This document shows positions 54,632-60,628 of a stretch of 61,413 nucleotides of DNA, in pieces. Source of the DNA: Kiritimatiellia bacterium (lineage in GTDB: Bacteria; Verrucomicrobiota; Kiritimatiellia; RFP12; UBA1067); the NCBI GenBank assembly GCA_017628025.1, contig JAGBZX010000025.1, positions 1 through 61,413 on the forward strand, read 5' to 3'. The stretch's first letter is position 1. Every line of letters begins with the position of its first letter. The notes below the pieces were generated by a model that saw only the letters and a list, made by a program, of their open reading frames with translations, was not told where the DNA came from and did no database searches. Position numbers and translations under genes: made by a program.

Positions 54632-55600
54632 CTAAATCTTTTGCAAGGGGTAATTTTTTAAATTTTCAAGTTCATGCTCAATTTGCTCTAAAGAGCGTAT
54701 TTTTGAGAGCCTTGAACGTAGCTGTGCAGCCCCTGGCATACCATTGAAGTATCTAAATAGATGCGTATGCATACGTATCGAAGCGAATGCATCGCGTGAT
54801 GGCAAATGGTCATTTGGAAACTTTTCAACAAGCTGCTTATGGAAATCTAGTAAAAATTGCAAATGCATCCTACATGATGTCATCGCGTCATGTTCAACAA
54901 GGGGCTTTTCACCTTTTAGTAGTGAAAATATCCACGGCTTTGATAATGCCGCCCTTCCTATCATAAGACCTGCTACGCCAGTAGAAGCCATTTTCTTAAC
55001 ACTTTGCGCATCTTTGATGCTGCCATTTCCTATTATCTCAAGCTTAGTTTTTGAAACTACTTCTTCTAATACATCAAGATGTACTTCTCCAGAATGCTTT
55101 TCTGATGTATAGCGAGCATGAATAATAATACTAGATGCGCCAGCTTTTTCCGCTGCATCTAAAATTTCAAATATCAAGGTTTTTTGAGGATGAGGCCCTA
55201 AGCGCGTTTTAAGGGTAATGGGCAAAGTTGTCGCGCTTTTCATTGCCTTGAGCAGTTTATAGATTTTCTCTGGAGTCTCTATAAGTTTTGCGCCAGAGCC
55301 AGACCTAGTAATTCGCAACATTGGACAGCCAGCATTGAGATTTATCGAAGCAAAACTCCCTGTTTCTTCTATTAATTTAGCAGAAAACGCTAATTCCTCT
55401 TCATTTGAGCCAAAAAGTTGGCAATGAACTCGACCCTCTTCGGGCAATGTTTCTATTAGACGCAATGTGCCGCGGTGACCGTGGAAAAGAGCCGCCGCAC
55501 TAACCATCTCTGTATACGCCTCATCAGCACCACCCAAAAAACACATTTTTCTAAAAGGTGCATCTGTGAAATCTGCTAATGGTGCTAGTATATACTTCAT
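54632..55600 (-). CDS. tRNA-dihydrouridine synthase
   Basis: LAPLADFTDAPFRKMC, INLNAGCP, IIGNGSI, GLMIGRAA. Confidence 0.85.
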   Translation of the reverse strand: MKYILAPLADFTDAPFRKMCFLGGADEAYTEMVSAAALFHGHRGTLRLIETLPEEGRVHCQLFGSNEEELAFSAKLIEETGSFASINLNAGCPMLRITRSGSGAKLIETPEKIYKLLKAMKSATTLPITLKTRLGPHPQKTLIFEILDAAEKAGASSIIIHARYTSEKHSGEVHLDVLEEVVSKTKLEIIGNGSIKDAQSVKKMASTGVAGLMIGRAALSKPWIFSLLKGEKPLVEHDAMTSCRMHLQFLLDFHKQLVEKFPNDHLPSRDAFASIRMHTHLFRYFNGMPGAAQLRSRLSKIRSLEQIEHELENLKNYPLQKI

Positions 55601-57126
55601 TTTTTATTAGGAGCAAAAAACGGATCTACATATCCTTTTGTTTTTGTAGGATTAGCTACCGTAACAAAACTTGGAGCCCCCCATGTAGAAGAATCACTCT
55701 TAGCAAAAATCGCCACATCAACACGCGATGTTATTGAGCTTAAATCGATAGTTAACTTGGCAAGATTTGAAGCTATGCGCTCAAGCTTATGAGAAGAGGC
55801 ACCATTTACTATTGAAAATTCATTTGAAGTGCCGCCAGTTGATTTAATAAAAAACTCTTGAGTACCCTTATCTTCTCTTACAACAAATGCAACAGAGCAA
55901 CGAGAAGAAAATACACACTCCGCTTTAATCTTTTCGCCTTCCTTTGGCTTTGCTGGGCCAGCAGCTATAATTGCGACGGGAGGAATTTCTTCAGCTTTAA
56001 GCTTTTTTGAAAGCTTTATTAATTTAGGGACATTAAGTCCATTTGGCGGCATACATGTCGGGTGCGCCTTAGAAGACAAATAATCTGCCTCTGTCTCTAC
56101 CCCAACTAATGAGCGACGGATAATATTCTGGACTAAAGGTGCGAGCATCCCTTTCGAAACAGCCGCGGCTTTAACTTCGCTTTTAAGAGAGCGAGAAATC
56201 TCTAATGATGCTTTCAAATAATATAAATCTGACCAACTTGCCCCTGATGTAACAATCCAATAAGGAGCTACCGACATAAACAAATCACCATTAACCCCTA
56301 CAGGTGGATAATCGGCATTGGCAGGAAAAACCCATATCTGATTTAGAAAATAAAACTTCTCCATCAGATAAAACTTATTTCTATCAATCGTCATCAATGC
56401 ACGCGGCAAACTGCGCCAAAAAGATTTATCTTGGAGAGCTCTAGAACAATTTCCAAAAACTGGATATGGGAAAATCATATTAGGAAAATCTAGATGCGCT
56501 CTGCGATTTCTCGCTTCCCTATCGAGCATGACTTCTGTAAGTCCTGGAAAATCCGCTACATTTATTCTAGAATGCATACCGTCACGATTCATATAAAGAT
56601 CGTATCGGTTAGCGCCCGCCTTACCGCCTGTCAACTTTGCCTTTACAGAAAAAGCACCAACCTCAAAGTCCCAACCGAGATTATGCTCGCCAACTGAAAG
56701 CGGTCCATTCCCAACTCCACACGTTGTTGGCACACTAGCTAGCGGTCCAAATAAAATAGGTTTTTTCGCGATTGAGCGCGCATACTCAATAAGCTTTGCA
56801 AATCGCTTGCGATCTTTTAGCCTAGCTAAATCAAGATCGGCCGCCATTGATACATGATCTCTATAACCTAAATCAATCGCCTTTTCAAGTTGCACATACG
56901 CAGGTTCTTGATCCTCTTTATAAGCTAATGCACAAGCGTAATTATATGCCCAAGTTGGGTCTTCTGGCAAAAGCGCTGCTGCTTTTGAACTTGTTTCAAG
57001 CATCGTTGACGTATCTCCAGTGCGATACGCATTTACAAATGCTGCTTTTAATTTTGTATGCTCAAGTTGCTTTGCCGGATATTCCCATATCGACAGCACA
57101 GCTAAAGCTACGACAAGCCAATTCAT
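55597..57126 (-). CDS. Hypothetical protein (signal/TM N-terminus, one TPR-like segment)
   Basis: 509-aa ORF overlapping dus by 4 nt. No family recognised. Confidence 0.55.
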   Translation of the reverse strand: MNWLVVALAVLSIWEYPAKQLEHTKLKAAFVNAYRTGDTSTMLETSSKAAALLPEDPTWAYNYACALAYKEDQEPAYVQLEKAIDLGYRDHVSMAADLDLARLKDRKRFAKLIEYARSIAKKPILFGPLASVPTTCGVGNGPLSVGEHNLGWDFEVGAFSVKAKLTGGKAGANRYDLYMNRDGMHSRINVADFPGLTEVMLDREARNRRAHLDFPNMIFPYPVFGNCSRALQDKSFWRSLPRALMTIDRNKFYLMEKFYFLNQIWVFPANADYPPVGVNGDLFMSVAPYWIVTSGASWSDLYYLKASLEISRSLKSEVKAAAVSKGMLAPLVQNIIRRSLVGVETEADYLSSKAHPTCMPPNGLNVPKLIKLSKKLKAEEIPPVAIIAAGPAKPKEGEKIKAECVFSSRCSVAFVVREDKGTQEFFIKSTGGTSNEFSIVNGASSHKLERIASNLAKLTIDLSSITSRVDVAIFAKSDSSTWGAPSFVTVANPTKTKGYVDPFFAPNKK

Positions 57127-57127
57127 A

Positions 57128-58588
57128 TTATTTCCTTCCGCGAAGACGCATCCACGTTGGTATCTTTACCATTCTTGCTTCACGGCTTTGATTTGTAGAG
57201 ACAGTATCTATTGTACCGATTGATGGCGATTCAAGCTCTGCTATGCGTGCCATAAGCACCTGTTGATTTTGAGCTTCGCGGCGCATGAGCTCATCATTTT
57301 GCTTGCGTAAGTTTAAAATTTCCTTCTCGCGGAAATTTAACTTCTCGCGCAAAAGCGCAACTTCCTGATTAATCTGTGCAATATCTTTATCGCTCACCAA
57401 TCTACGCGATTGTTCAGCCTTTAATAGACGTATCGTTTCAGACTGCTCTGAAATCTTGCGCTCGCGTTCTGCAGCCGTTTTTTCAGCCATGCGGCGATAA
57501 TCCTCGTATTCTGTCCTTATTTGTGCAGTACGGGGATCTTCAGGATTTGAACGCAAAGCCAAACGAGTCATTTCTGCCGCGTCAGCGCCTGCTCTCTTAA
57601 GAAGATTACGCCTACGCTCAGTTAATCGTTCAATCCTGTTTTGGTATCTAGCACACATTTCTTCAAACTCGGCTTTTTCTGCTTCTAAGGTATTGGCTAA
57701 TTCAGTTGCCTCGTCAGAAATTATCGAATAGACTGCTGCTTGCATATTAGCTATTTCACTTGCAGCCTGAGGAAGACGCTCTAGATCTTCCCTAAGTTTT
57801 CCTATCGTAAGATCCTTATCAGCTAGCTCAGTAGCGCGTTGCTCAAGTTGAGTTTTATTAACATCAAGAATTGACTCTAATTCCCTTACTCTTCTTTCAT
57901 CAATAATTGTTTTCTCAACAATTTTCTCTACTTCAACAGGAACTTCTACGCGTACTTCTTTTATAACTTCCTTTTCAACTATCTTTTCTACTTCAACTGG
58001 AACCTCAACGCGTACTTCTTTAATAACTTCCTTCTCTACTATCTTTTCTACCTCAACTGGCACTTCAACGCGCACCTCTTTTACAACTTCCTTCTCTACT
58101 ATCTTTTCTACCTCAACTGGCACTTCAACGCGCACCTCTTTTACAACTTCCTTCTCTACTATCTTTTCTACCTCAACTGGCACTTCAACGCGCACCTCAT
58201 TTACGAGAGATACATCTTCTTTCTCTACTTCAAAAAACTCCTCGGCCTTCGGCTCTTCGATTTGTTGTTCACTTACCTCTATAGTTTCTTCTTCAAATGG
58301 TGCACGCACTTCAACAACCTTAGCAATTGGAGGTAAGCGCCCAGAAGAAATAAGCGCATCTGCCGCGGCTTTATTATATGGCCCTCGCGGATTTCCATCT
58401 CCCAAATCAATTGAAAAGCGCATATCTAAAAACGCTACATCCTCAACTTTACGCCAAGTAAAATTATCGGAGGAAATTTCTTGTCCTGGCTGTATACGCC
58501 CTACCTTTGCCCACGCAATAAGTTGCTCTCTAGACTCTGGACCGAAAACTTCGTCTGCAGTTCTTAAATACCACTTTTCATTTTGCAT
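57128..58588 (-). CDS. GYF_2 (DUF4339)-domain protein with five 20-aa repeats and a long C-terminal coiled coil
   Basis: N-terminus KWYLRTADEVFGPESREQLIAWAKVGRIQPGQEISSDNFTWRKVEDV. Repeats of VEVPVEVEKIVEKEV(V/I)KEVR. C-terminal heptad-rich region. Confidence 0.7.
   Translation of the reverse strand: MQNEKWYLRTADEVFGPESREQLIAWAKVGRIQPGQEISSDNFTWRKVEDVAFLDMRFSIDLGDGNPRGPYNKAAADALISSGRLPPIAKVVEVRAPFEEETIEVSEQQIEEPKAEEFFEVEKEDVSLVNEVRVEVPVEVEKIVEKEVVKEVRVEVPVEVEKIVEKEVVKEVRVEVPVEVEKIVEKEVIKEVRVEVPVEVEKIVEKEVIKEVRVEVPVEVEKIVEKTIIDERRVRELESILDVNKTQLEQRATELADKDLTIGKLREDLERLPQAASEIANMQAAVYSIISDEATELANTLEAEKAEFEEMCARYQNRIERLTERRRNLLKRAGADAAEMTRLALRSNPEDPRTAQIRTEYEDYRRMAEKTAAERERKISEQSETIRLLKAEQSRRLVSDKDIAQINQEVALLREKLNFREKEILNLRKQNDELMRREAQNQQVLMARIAELESPSIGTIDTVSTNQSREARMVKIPTWMRLRGRK
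57911..58198. repeat. 60-bp in-frame tandem repeat array (about 4.8 units) inside the GYF gene
   Basis: Units at 58021-58080 and 58081-58140 are identical. Neighbouring units differ by a few synonymous or V/I changes. Confidence 0.9.
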
Positions 58589-58591
58589 AAA

Positions 58592-59386
58592 TTACCTCCT
58601 ACCAAAAAGGCGACTGCCAAATCTGTGTTTATTCGCTGCTGCTATTTCACGCTGAGCAGCGGCCTCAAGCGCTTTTAATTTATCGCTAGAAACATCTTTA
58701 AAAATACCTTCTAACCTTACTGGAGGAGTAGCCCCAGATGGTTCTTCGAGAACTTCAGCAGTGACCACTCTTCTGGGAGGTGGTGCTACTTCAATCACGC
58801 GCTCAACTATCTTCTCAACTGGCACCTCGACGCGAACTTCTTTTATGACTTCCTTCTCGACGATTTTCTCTACCTCAACTGGCACCTCTACGCGCACTTC
58901 TTTTATCACTTCCTTCTCGACAATCTTCTCTACCTCAACTGGCACCTCTACGCGAACTTCTTTTATCACTTCCTTCTCGACGATTTTCTCTACCTCAACT
59001 GGCACCTCTACGCGCACTTCTTTTATCACTTCCTTCTCGACAATCTTCTCTACTACAACTGGAGGAGGATCTTGCTCTGCTAGAAGTTCATGCATCTTAT
59101 AGAGTTTTGCGCCTGTAGGCATTTCGCCTCGAGCCTGAAGACCTATAACGAGCGTTCGATTAAATGGACCAAAGAGTTTCCCAGGCTCTGTTTCTACTAT
59201 CCATTTCATCTCTAGCTCTGGCACTGTTTGTGCTGGCATCCACGAGCGTCTATCTGAAGATATTAAGCTAGCCGGTTCAATACGCCCATCGCGACACCAA
59301 GCTACAAGTTGCGTCATTGTTGCAGGGCCATAGACTTTAGAGTCTGCCGCTTTTACGTACCATTTCTTTTCTTCTGACATATACAA
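58592..59386 (-). CDS. GYF_2 (DUF4339)-domain protein with four 20-aa repeats (paralogue of the downstream gene)
   Basis: KKWYVKAADSKVYGPATMTQLVAWCRDGRIEPASLISSDRRSWMPAQTVPEL, then VEKIVEKEVIKEVRVEVPVE four times. The start could be ATG 59380. Confidence 0.7.
   Translation of the reverse strand: MYMSEEKKWYVKAADSKVYGPATMTQLVAWCRDGRIEPASLISSDRRSWMPAQTVPELEMKWIVETEPGKLFGPFNRTLVIGLQARGEMPTGAKLYKMHELLAEQDPPPVVVEKIVEKEVIKEVRVEVPVEVEKIVEKEVIKEVRVEVPVEVEKIVEKEVIKEVRVEVPVEVEKIVEKEVIKEVRVEVPVEKIVERVIEVAPPPRRVVTAEVLEEPSGATPPVRLEGIFKDVSSDKLKALEAAAQREIAAANKHRFGSRLFGRR
58799..59056. repeat. 60-bp in-frame tandem repeat array with 120-bp higher-order periodicity
   Basis: 58861-58920 is identical to 58981-59040. 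Confidence 0.9.
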
Positions 59387-59404: not shown

Positions 59405-60628
59405 TTACATTGCTTTTACTAGGGCTTCTGCAAACTGCGAACAGCTTACTTCTTTTGCGCCTTCCATTAAGCGCGCAAAATCATAAGTAACAGTTTTTTC
59501 TGCAATTACTTTATCCATCGCGGAAATAATTAAATCTGCCGCTTCCGTCCACCCCATATATCTAAGCATCATTTCACCAGAAAGTATTAATGAACCTGGA
59601 TTTACTTTATCTAGCCCAGCATACTTTGGAGCAGTTCCATGGGTTGCTTCAAAAACAGCAACACCGGTTTGATAATTAATATTTGCTCCTGGAGCTATAC
59701 CAATACCACCGACTGTCGCTGCTAGCGCGTCGGAAACATAATCACCATTCAAGTTAAGTGTTGCAATTACGTCGTATTCTGCAGGGCGTGTTAATATCTG
59801 TTGTAAAAACGCATCACAAATACAATCTTTAATTACTATTTCGTTTCCAGTTTTGGGATTTTTAAGTTTACACCATGGTCCTTCGCCAATAGGCTCGGCA
59901 AAGTATTCGCGCCTTGCAAGTTGATACCCCCAATCGCGGAACGCACCTTCTGTAAACTTCTGTATATTCCCTTTATGGACGAGAGTTACAGACTTGCGAT
60001 CATTTGTAATAGCGTAATCAATAGCTGCGCGAACGAGGCGTTCTGTACCTTCTATTGAAACTGGCTTAATTCCTATTGAAGAAGTTTCTGGGAAGCGGAT
60101 TTTTTTTACTCCCATTTCTTCAATTAAGAATTTTTTGATTTTATCAGCGCCTTCTGTGCCGCTCATCCACTCAATGCCTGCGTAGATATCTTCGGTGTTT
60201 TCTCTAAAAACTACCATATCGGTAGATTCAGGGTGTTTAACAGGAGAAGGTACACCTTTAAAGTAGCGAACAGGTCTAAGGCAGACATAGAGATCTAATT
60301 CTTGACGCATTGCGACATTAATAGAACGAATTCCGCCACCCACTGGAGTCGTCAATGGACCTTTTATAGAGACAAGGGCTTCTTTACAAGTATCAAGAGT
60401 TTCTTGAGGCAGCCACTGACCAGTTTTCTTAAATGCCTTTTCGCCAGCGAGAACTTCGCGCCATTGAATGGAACGGGACTGTCCATATGCCTTTTTAATC
60501 GAGGCGTTCCAAACGCGCAAAGCTGCACTTGTTATATCTGGACCTATTCCATCACCTTCTATATATGGAATCACAGGACAATCAGGCACACATAGCGCGC
60601 CATCACACATAGAAATTGTATTTTTCAT
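59405..60628 (-). CDS. icd: NADP-dependent isocitrate dehydrogenase
   Basis: [45 protein letters not shown]. 407 aa. Confidence 0.95.

Follow-up and report, generated by a model that had tools for sequence, protein, structure and literature searches.

What is the role of a tandem peptide repeat that stays almost unchanged while its copy number varies freely? This question is raised by two adjacent paralogous genes, here called B and A, on contig JAGBZX010000025.1 (assembly GCA_017628025.1), a 61,413-nucleotide stretch of DNA from an uncultured gut Kiritimatiellae bacterium that we analysed as a whole and refer to as the window. Gene B, the short paralogue (262 amino acids (aa); 58592-59380), and gene A, the long paralogue (486 aa; 57128-58588), lie on the minus strand, as do all their features given below. 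B was defined as an open reading frame (ORF) and by the invariant residues of a family alignment, A1, in both GYF halves and the C-terminal part, and A as an ORF and by the B-A order kept across species. In B, two GYF domains are followed by the repeat array, a Pro-rich segment, a helix and a basic tail. In A, two GYF domains and an acidic linker precede the array, which leads into a helical, coiled-coil-like region of ~230 aa and a conserved tail. As judged from the substitution pattern, selection acts on the repeat peptide. With our confidence evenly balanced, we propose that B and A might form a cytoplasmic two-protein scaffold built from GYF adaptors, a self-associating β-type rod and basic C-terminal tails.

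Selection on the repeat peptide

Tandem Repeats Finder located 4.2 copies of a 60-bp unit encoding VEKIVEKEVIKEVRVEVPVE in B (58814-59062) and 4.9 copies of a 60-bp unit in A (57912-58204), and the repeat motif was found nowhere else in the window. The unit peptide of both genes is VEKIVEKEV(I/V)KEVRVEVPVE. The B array is flanked by DPPPVVV and EVAPPPRR and has a 120-bp higher-order period. A preceding sequence-only reading of the locus had named one pair of identical units in each gene. The pair in B held, with 58861-58920 exactly matching 58981-59040 and the longest exact run at the 120-bp offset reaching 86 nt. The pair in A has to be shifted by 4 nt: 58021-58080 and 58081-58140 differ by two mismatches, at 58022 and 58024, and the true exact identity is that of 58025-58138 with 58085-58198, i.e., 114 nt at a 60-bp offset.

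The same reading held that the two genes differ mainly at synonymous sites around a nearly invariant peptide, which the counts bear out. Per 60 nt, A units and B units are separated by 7-12 synonymous and 0-1 nonsynonymous differences. Among the eight full units 15 columns vary, 14 of them at third codon positions and the remaining one being the V/I change at residue 10. With synonymous sites making up only 22% of the total, this third-position excess (14/15) has a binomial P of ~1e-8. Comparison of the A array with the B array by the Nei-Gojobori method (NG86) yielded 0.011 nonsynonymous (dN) and 1.89 synonymous (dS) substitutions per site. The two arrays share an identical 57-aa peptide, yet their longest identical nucleotide run does not exceed 17 nt. 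Units also differ less within an array (0-8 nt) than between arrays (7-12 nt), which together with the dN/dS check agrees with purifying selection plus intragenic homogenisation, as had been suggested. The locus is a clean natural case of a coding tandem repeat with near-absolutely conserved peptide and free copy number, presented by two paralogous arrays that spell the same peptide in different synonymous codons.

Could the array be a functionless slippage expansion in a linker, uniform through recent duplication and not through selection? Several identical 60-bp units, the wide length variation between species, close assemblies that differ by whole units and the replacement of a disordered linker of related proteins are what such an origin would leave behind. 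However, the units have diverged at up to 12 of 60 nt, with dS ~1.9 and almost all changes synonymous (P ~1e-8), and a six-residue composition and spacing are kept in about 60 species and in both paralogues. The selection data make neutral slippage unlikely, and we consider this explanation highly improbable.

Array rules and copy number across species

The array pattern was compiled from 61 genomes. The 20-aa unit of the window is absent from other species, and even the closest one (~61% identity) uses different units. The unit itself, first taken for the selected feature, is therefore confined to the lineage of the window, and the family keeps a compositional rule instead. V, E, K, I, P and R account for 97% of array residues in about 60 species and both paralogues, and V occupies every second position. 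The distance from one Pro to the next is mostly even, with spacings of 12, 14, 16, 18 and 20 residues seen 65, 108, 28, 35 and 46 times, and the odd spacings 11, 15 and 17 seen only 1, 2 and 2 times. Of the units between prolines, the 12-aa VEKIVEKIVEVP is the most frequent, and VEKIVEKEVRVEVP is also among the commonest. In the window arrays, hydrophobic periodicity is strongest at 2.0 residues, a period that would place the valines and Lys on one face of an extended strand and Glu and Ile on the other. AlphaFold2 predicted no monomer fold for the B array, with a predicted local distance difference test score (pLDDT) of ~30.

Between species, the B array varies in length from 22 to 175 aa and the A array from 13 to 102 aa, and the two lengths correlate only weakly (rho 0.31). 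A ruler of fixed length, one of the roles considered in the sequence-only reading, is unlikely given arrays of 13-175 aa, and we rejected it on this spread and the weak A/B correlation. A and B arrays of the same genome are more alike than arrays of different genomes (Wilcoxon test: DNA, P 4e-6; peptide, P 6e-5), which fits occasional exchange between arrays or joint selection. At one locus, L026, VDRIVEKEVMVEVP is present in both the B and the A array. The two L026 arrays additionally have the rare variant VEVPVDRIVEKEVMVEVPVEKIVE in common and are identical in DNA over a stretch of 56 nt. The sharing at L026 suggests a recent exchange between the two paralogous arrays.

Near-identical assemblies differ in their arrays, with B comprising 262 or 222 aa and A 486 as opposed to 466 or 446 aa. 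The MEGAHIT contigs L001 and L002 carry two units fewer in B and one unit fewer in A than the window. Their arrays may be collapsed; the exact repeats (114 and 86 nt) lie below k = 141, but depth was low. Logan contigs (k = 31) from the four best runs break inside the arrays, one run showing a 60-nt skip in A, and unitig depth ratios of ~2-2.75 are compatible with, though not decisive for, the window copy number. The repeat-number polymorphism that had been proposed as a check is seen between near-identical assemblies, in a form indistinguishable from short-read repeat collapse.

GYF domains at both N-termini

The first GYF_2 domain of B (residues 7-56; 59213-59362) matches Pfam GYF_2/DUF4339 (PF14237) with 30.6 bits against a gathering score of 25.8, and all 47 B-type orthologues match this family. 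The pair of GYF_2 domains in A (residues 6-95; 58304-58573), recognised by Pfam as two stretches, scores a borderline 25.9 bits against the same threshold of 25.8. It is the best conserved part of A, being 66-79% identical across species (tblastn), and the N-terminal modules of A and B are about one-third identical. A Pfam match in both proteins thus substantiates the shared architecture with an N-terminal GYF_2/DUF4339-like module. The second, degenerate GYF-like domain in B (residues 57-103; 59072-59212) was recognised by profile-profile comparison of domain 1 with domain 2 across the B family (95% probability, E 3e-8) and by the order of secondary structure in the AlphaFold2 model. B residues 1-100 were modelled with a pLDDT of ~90, and both halves adopt the same strand-strand-helix-strand topology, in line with the degenerate second copy that had been read from the sequence. 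In a Foldseek search with the B model, the best small-domain matches were GYF domains, among them those of GIGYF1/2, Smy2 and GltJ (7z3c), and 7rup was matched with a target TM-score of 0.60 and a probability of 0.97. The E-values of the GYF matches are weak (0.07-0.16) because the B model is mostly unstructured.

When 1.84 billion representative proteins were searched with the double-GYF module of A, at least 838 clusters at 50% identity matched. Judging from its occurrence, the double-GYF module is a widely reused building block. The bacterial GYF (DUF4339) domain is widespread and almost unstudied, and that of GltJ is to our knowledge the sole one investigated in bacteria. We also observed four giants of 1100-1590 aa (P0242, P0258, P0264, P0273) with three or four double-GYF modules spaced by long coiled coils, and one protein (P0279) in which the module is joined to other, non-coiled-coil sequence.

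The cytosolic GYF domain of GltJ binds AglZ through a proline-rich sequence located ahead of the AglZ coiled coil (PMC11135422). On this precedent, the array could be a multivalent ligand for the GYF pairs of A and B, cross-linking them into a network or condensate whose valency is set by copy number. Candidate ligands would be the array peptide EVRVEVPVEVEK and the DPPPVV and APPPRR flanks, with binding sites in each ...RVEVPVE... unit and in the PPP motifs on either side. Besides the binding of GltJ to a proline-rich sequence beside a coiled coil (PMC11135422), such a role would account for a Pro-rich linker exactly at the array position in array-less A orthologues, for an array predicted to be unstructured as a monomer, for a motif that stays constant while its copy number varies freely, and for the greater likeness of same-genome arrays, as expected if both fit the same pockets. 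However, Pro makes up only 8.6% of the array, one per 12-20 residues, unlike in known GYF ligands, and the strict period-2 valine and the fixed V/E/K/I composition exceed what a short linear motif needs. We regard this ligand role, the chief competitor of the scaffold that we favour, as rather unlikely; it would be compatible with that scaffold.

The array as a derived expansion

Arrays occur only in the closest matches to A, those with an A-type N-terminal module of ~56% identity or more, and some close matches lack one. Distant A-type proteins share with A the GYF pair and the ...VKLxSWMRLK tail; their coiled coil is longer, and a Pro/Ala/Glu-rich linker before it occupies the position of the array. 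In intermediate forms a single seed of ~20 aa, EVRVEVPVEKVVEKVVVD, stands where the coiled coil begins. Non-gut Kiritimatiellia, among them one with a complete genome of 6.1 Mb, retain the B-A pair without an array. Their B proteins carry a coiled coil after the GYF pair, then a ...VEVMPPERP... segment and finally the same helix and basic tail. In the array-less Kiritimatiellia genomes examined, gene C, which follows A in the window, does not adjoin B-A. That the array is limited to a subclade and that array-less B-A pairs exist elsewhere indicates an origin within the phylum; from the comparison of orthologues, the array is a derived expansion that takes the place of a rod or linker. The notion of an extended scaffold, put forward at first alongside the ruler, gains support from the coiled coil (B type) or Pro-rich linker (A type) at the array position in distant orthologues.

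C-terminal regions and predicted location

The C-terminal part of B (58595-58792) consists of a Pro-rich segment, a conserved helix (LKALEAAAQREIAAA; residues 232-255 in the AlphaFold2 model) and a basic tail ending in LFGRR, and contains invariant and near-invariant columns in alignment A1. In A, composition points to a helical, coiled-coil-like region at about residues 229-455 (57224-57904). Residues 226-470 are helix-prone and contain just 4 Pro and 3 Gly among 245 aa, but the peaks at 3.6- and 6.8-residue periodicity are weak. The ~250-aa region that had been read as a coiled coil in A is therefore helix-prone and poor in Pro and Gly, and remains a candidate coiled coil. Source labels of A orthologues read 'chromosome segregation ATPase' or 'SbcCD', which are usual mislabels for coiled coils. 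The conserved C-terminal tail of A (...NQSREA-x-VKIPTWMRLRGRK; 57131-57223) is kept in array-bearing and array-less orthologues alike.

Sequence inspection and Kyte-Doolittle analysis revealed neither a signal peptide nor a membrane segment in A or B, with maximum 19-residue means of 0.89 and 0.55, respectively, and both proteins are predicted to be cytoplasmic. This bears on the idea of exported proteins whose repeat would act as a surface stalk or adhesin spacer. In its favour, charged tandem repeats of variable copy number are typical of surface proteins, and both an N-terminal hydrophobic stretch and an immunoglobulin (Ig)-like domain are present in the neighbouring protein C. A surface role is unlikely for proteins that lack export signals; the long helical region and basic tail that close A moreover include no sorting signal, and bacterial GYF domains are cytosolic N-terminal modules (PMC11135422). 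We give this idea hardly any credence.

A conserved B-A-C gene unit

In the window, B and A belong to five tightly packed genes on the minus strand, the first being icd (59405-60628), followed by B, A, gene C (509 aa; 55597-57126) and a dus gene (54632-55600) that overlaps C by 4 nt. The stop of B and the start of A are 3 nt apart and the stop of A and the start of C 1 nt, and B-A junctions measure 0-4 nt across species. The last codons of B, GGT AGG AGG TAA (within 58592-58610), contain a perfect AGGAGG 5-10 nt ahead of the ATG of A; a ribosome-binding site inside the end of B fits translational coupling of the two genes. A consensus scan found no terminator-like site at any junction from icd to dus. 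The B reading frame also offers a TTG start at 59386, which would give 264 aa (2 aa extra). The ATG at 59380 is the more likely start because orthologues begin there, at MSEEKKW. A 113-aa ORF antisense to the B array (58761-59102, plus strand; TSTRTSFITSFSTIFS...) appears to be a by-product of the repeat and no gene.

We scanned one genome per species, which gave 80 loci, and read gene order across 84 loci. All 84 contain the A-type N-terminal GYF module, and in most of them it lies directly downstream of B; at a few loci it is the B gene itself, or an isolated A-type gene, that was matched. In 76 of the 84 the helical region of A was found as well. C follows A in 74/84 loci, dus follows C in 54/84, and icd precedes B in 4/84. 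The conserved unit is, judging from this gene order, B-A-C, with frames that overlap or abut. Of the two neighbours to which the pair had been linked at the outset, the 509-aa gene therefore qualifies as a downstream partner by its synteny, and icd, upstream of B in so few loci, does not; a functional link to icd was rejected for this reason.

Protein C comprises a TPR region, a central domain of ~260 aa and a C-terminal Ig-like sandwich, and was modelled by AlphaFold2 with a pLDDT of 90.4. NCBIfam TPR_END_plus matches it with 38 bits, and Pfam gave no family beyond TPR. In a Foldseek search only the Ig-like and TPR parts found matches, the central domain having none among solved structures. 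Orthologues of C from 42 species share 58 invariant residues, many of them polar. The N-terminal hydrophobic stretch of C is short and too weak to be called a membrane segment.

The B-A pair is conserved in about 80 gut or rumen Kiritimatiellae species, and every carrier found is a metagenome-assembled genome of an uncultured organism. Public data hold well over 1000 relatives per protein, and every source name that states a taxon is Kiritimatiellae or Kiritimatiellaeota. Nearly all survey loci come from Kiritimatiellae metagenome-assembled genomes of rumen, other animal gut or human gut, several being filed as Verrucomicrobia, Lentisphaerae or under plainly wrong bin names. Nine loci (L024, L035, L050, L054, L062, L076, L078, L079, L081) are filed under unrelated names, for example Alistipes, Muribaculaceae, Methanomethylophilaceae archaeon, Faecalibacterium, Azospirillum, Anaerovoracaceae, Barnesiella and Gemmiger. 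Oddly named bins that carry the Kiritimatiellae-type gene pair are probably mislabelled or contaminated. A literature search on the B-A family, on DUF4339 in bacteria of the Planctomycetes-Verrucomicrobia-Chlamydiae (PVC) group and on bacterial alveolin-like proteins returned nothing specific.

A possible two-protein scaffold

The scaffold that we propose starts from what was observed at the locus, i.e., the domain make-up, the selection on the peptide, the conserved pairing of the two genes, the composition and spacing of the arrays, their derived nature and the lack of a signal peptide or membrane segment. B and A would be translationally coupled paralogous scaffold proteins of Kiritimatiellae. 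Their GYF pairs would act as adaptors for proline-rich partners, as in GltJ-AglZ, and the array, made of V, E, K, I, P and R with a Pro every 12-20 residues, would serve as a rod or spacer in the gut and rumen clade. Array strands with a V/K face and an E/I face could pair with themselves or with the array of the partner, as is thought for articulins and alveolins, and B and A might together form a cortical scaffold of sheets or filaments. A second oligomerising rod would be provided by the long helical region of A, and the short basic and aromatic C-terminal tail could dock the protein on the membrane or on a partner, e.g., the TPR region of C. The array would grow and shrink by slippage or unequal exchange of 60-bp units, with selection removing nearly every amino-acid change in it. 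What we infer are the β-type self-association, a joint assembly of A and B, the function of the tails and any link to the membrane or to protein C. Such a B-A pair would give the bacterial GYF domain a second functional setting after GltJ.

Several points weigh against this proposal. Given the pLDDT of ~30, the array may be disordered rather than β-structured, and its length is free, although a precise structural role would more likely fix it. Shared base composition and codon use could partly explain why A and B arrays of one genome are more alike. The coiled coil of A is a candidate drawn from sequence properties, and the likeness of the B tail to MinD-type membrane-targeting sequences is putative. 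The window proteins A and B do not match Pfam IMCp, the alveolin family, at E up to 10, and we found no public RNA run containing the stretch.

Comparison with known repeat and scaffold systems

The initial statement that no function is described for such a repeat overlooked its close likeness to the repeats of alveolins, articulins and plateins (PMC12465100, PMC4303705, PMC2120578), as well as the GYF domain of GltJ (PMC11135422). In alveolins the repeat consensus is EKIVEVP and the period 12 aa (PMC12465100, PMC4303705), and their domains mediate alveolin-alveolin interaction in the membrane skeleton (PMC12465100). Like the arrays described here, alveolins (Pfam IMCp, PF12314; apicomplexans, ciliates, dinoflagellates) are built from tandem repeats rich in Val, Glu, Lys and Pro; the commonest unit of the bacterial family is the 12-aa VEKIVEKIVEVP, and the exact EKIVEVP occurs in 29 of the 61 genomes. 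The unit of the window differs in being 20 aa long and in having EKIVEKE and RVEVPVE without EKIVEVP, and alveolins contain no GYF domains and no coiled coil. The isolated window arrays do not match Pfam IMCp at E up to 1. Four orthologues (P0050, P0082, P0130, P0152) pass its cut-off of 21.1 with 26.5-29.6 bits, 4 of 47 B-type proteins match it at E up to 0.001, and a precomputed PF12314 label stands on more than half of the 120 best A-type matches. Membership in the alveolin family was rejected because the window proteins fail Pfam IMCp and the array is a derived insertion. The resemblance would be one of construction, not of membership, and in a bacterial family with a late array insertion within Kiritimatiellae it is most simply explained as convergent.

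Articulins consist of 12-residue VPVP--V-V-V- repeats with alternating charges, and recombinant articulin p60 forms filaments and sheets with ~30% β-sheet (PMC2120578). 'Articulin homologues' have been mentioned in Caulobacter (PMC4303705). The window arrays follow the rule of articulins and plateins (Euglena, ciliates) in that V stands at every second position (period 2.0), charges alternate in register and Pro recurs periodically. They depart from it in having neither the VPVP core nor the 12-aa period, with Pro rarer and Glu and Lys far commoner, and the domains flanking the repeats of articulins and plateins are unlike those of A/B.

In the gliding system of Myxococcus xanthus, the cytosolic GYF domain of GltJ recruits the coiled-coil protein AglZ via a proline-rich sequence (PMC11135422). 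GltJ is a membrane protein with one GYF domain and a zinc ribbon, whereas A and B have two GYF domains each. GYF domains, Pro-containing array and, in A, putative coiled coil are joined on one chain here, and no Mgl or Glt genes lie near B-A. As in the coiled-coil-rich bacterial cytoskeletal proteins of the crescentin, FilP and Scy type, a long helical rod (250-500 aa), predicted from sequence in A, dominates A and all distant A-type proteins; the cytoskeletal proteins have no GYF domains or Val/Glu repeat arrays, and no sequence relationship to them was found.

The cell biology of the PVC group has often been compared with that of eukaryotes. A more far-reaching version of the proposed scaffold, which we rate as speculative and improbable, holds that gut and rumen Kiritimatiellae independently evolved a cortical β-strand skeleton of the articulin/alveolin type from B and A, organised by the GYF domains and anchored by the basic tails or protein C. 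Gain of the repeat by gene transfer from rumen ciliates would be much less likely. An independent skeleton of this kind would add to the bacterial cytoskeletons a class that relies on none of tubulin, actin, bactofilin and a pure coiled coil, and would converge strikingly with the epiplasm of protists in the same habitat. If the arrays self-assemble, they would provide the first bacterial counterpart of the membrane skeletons made of charged Val/Pro repeats that are known only from protists.

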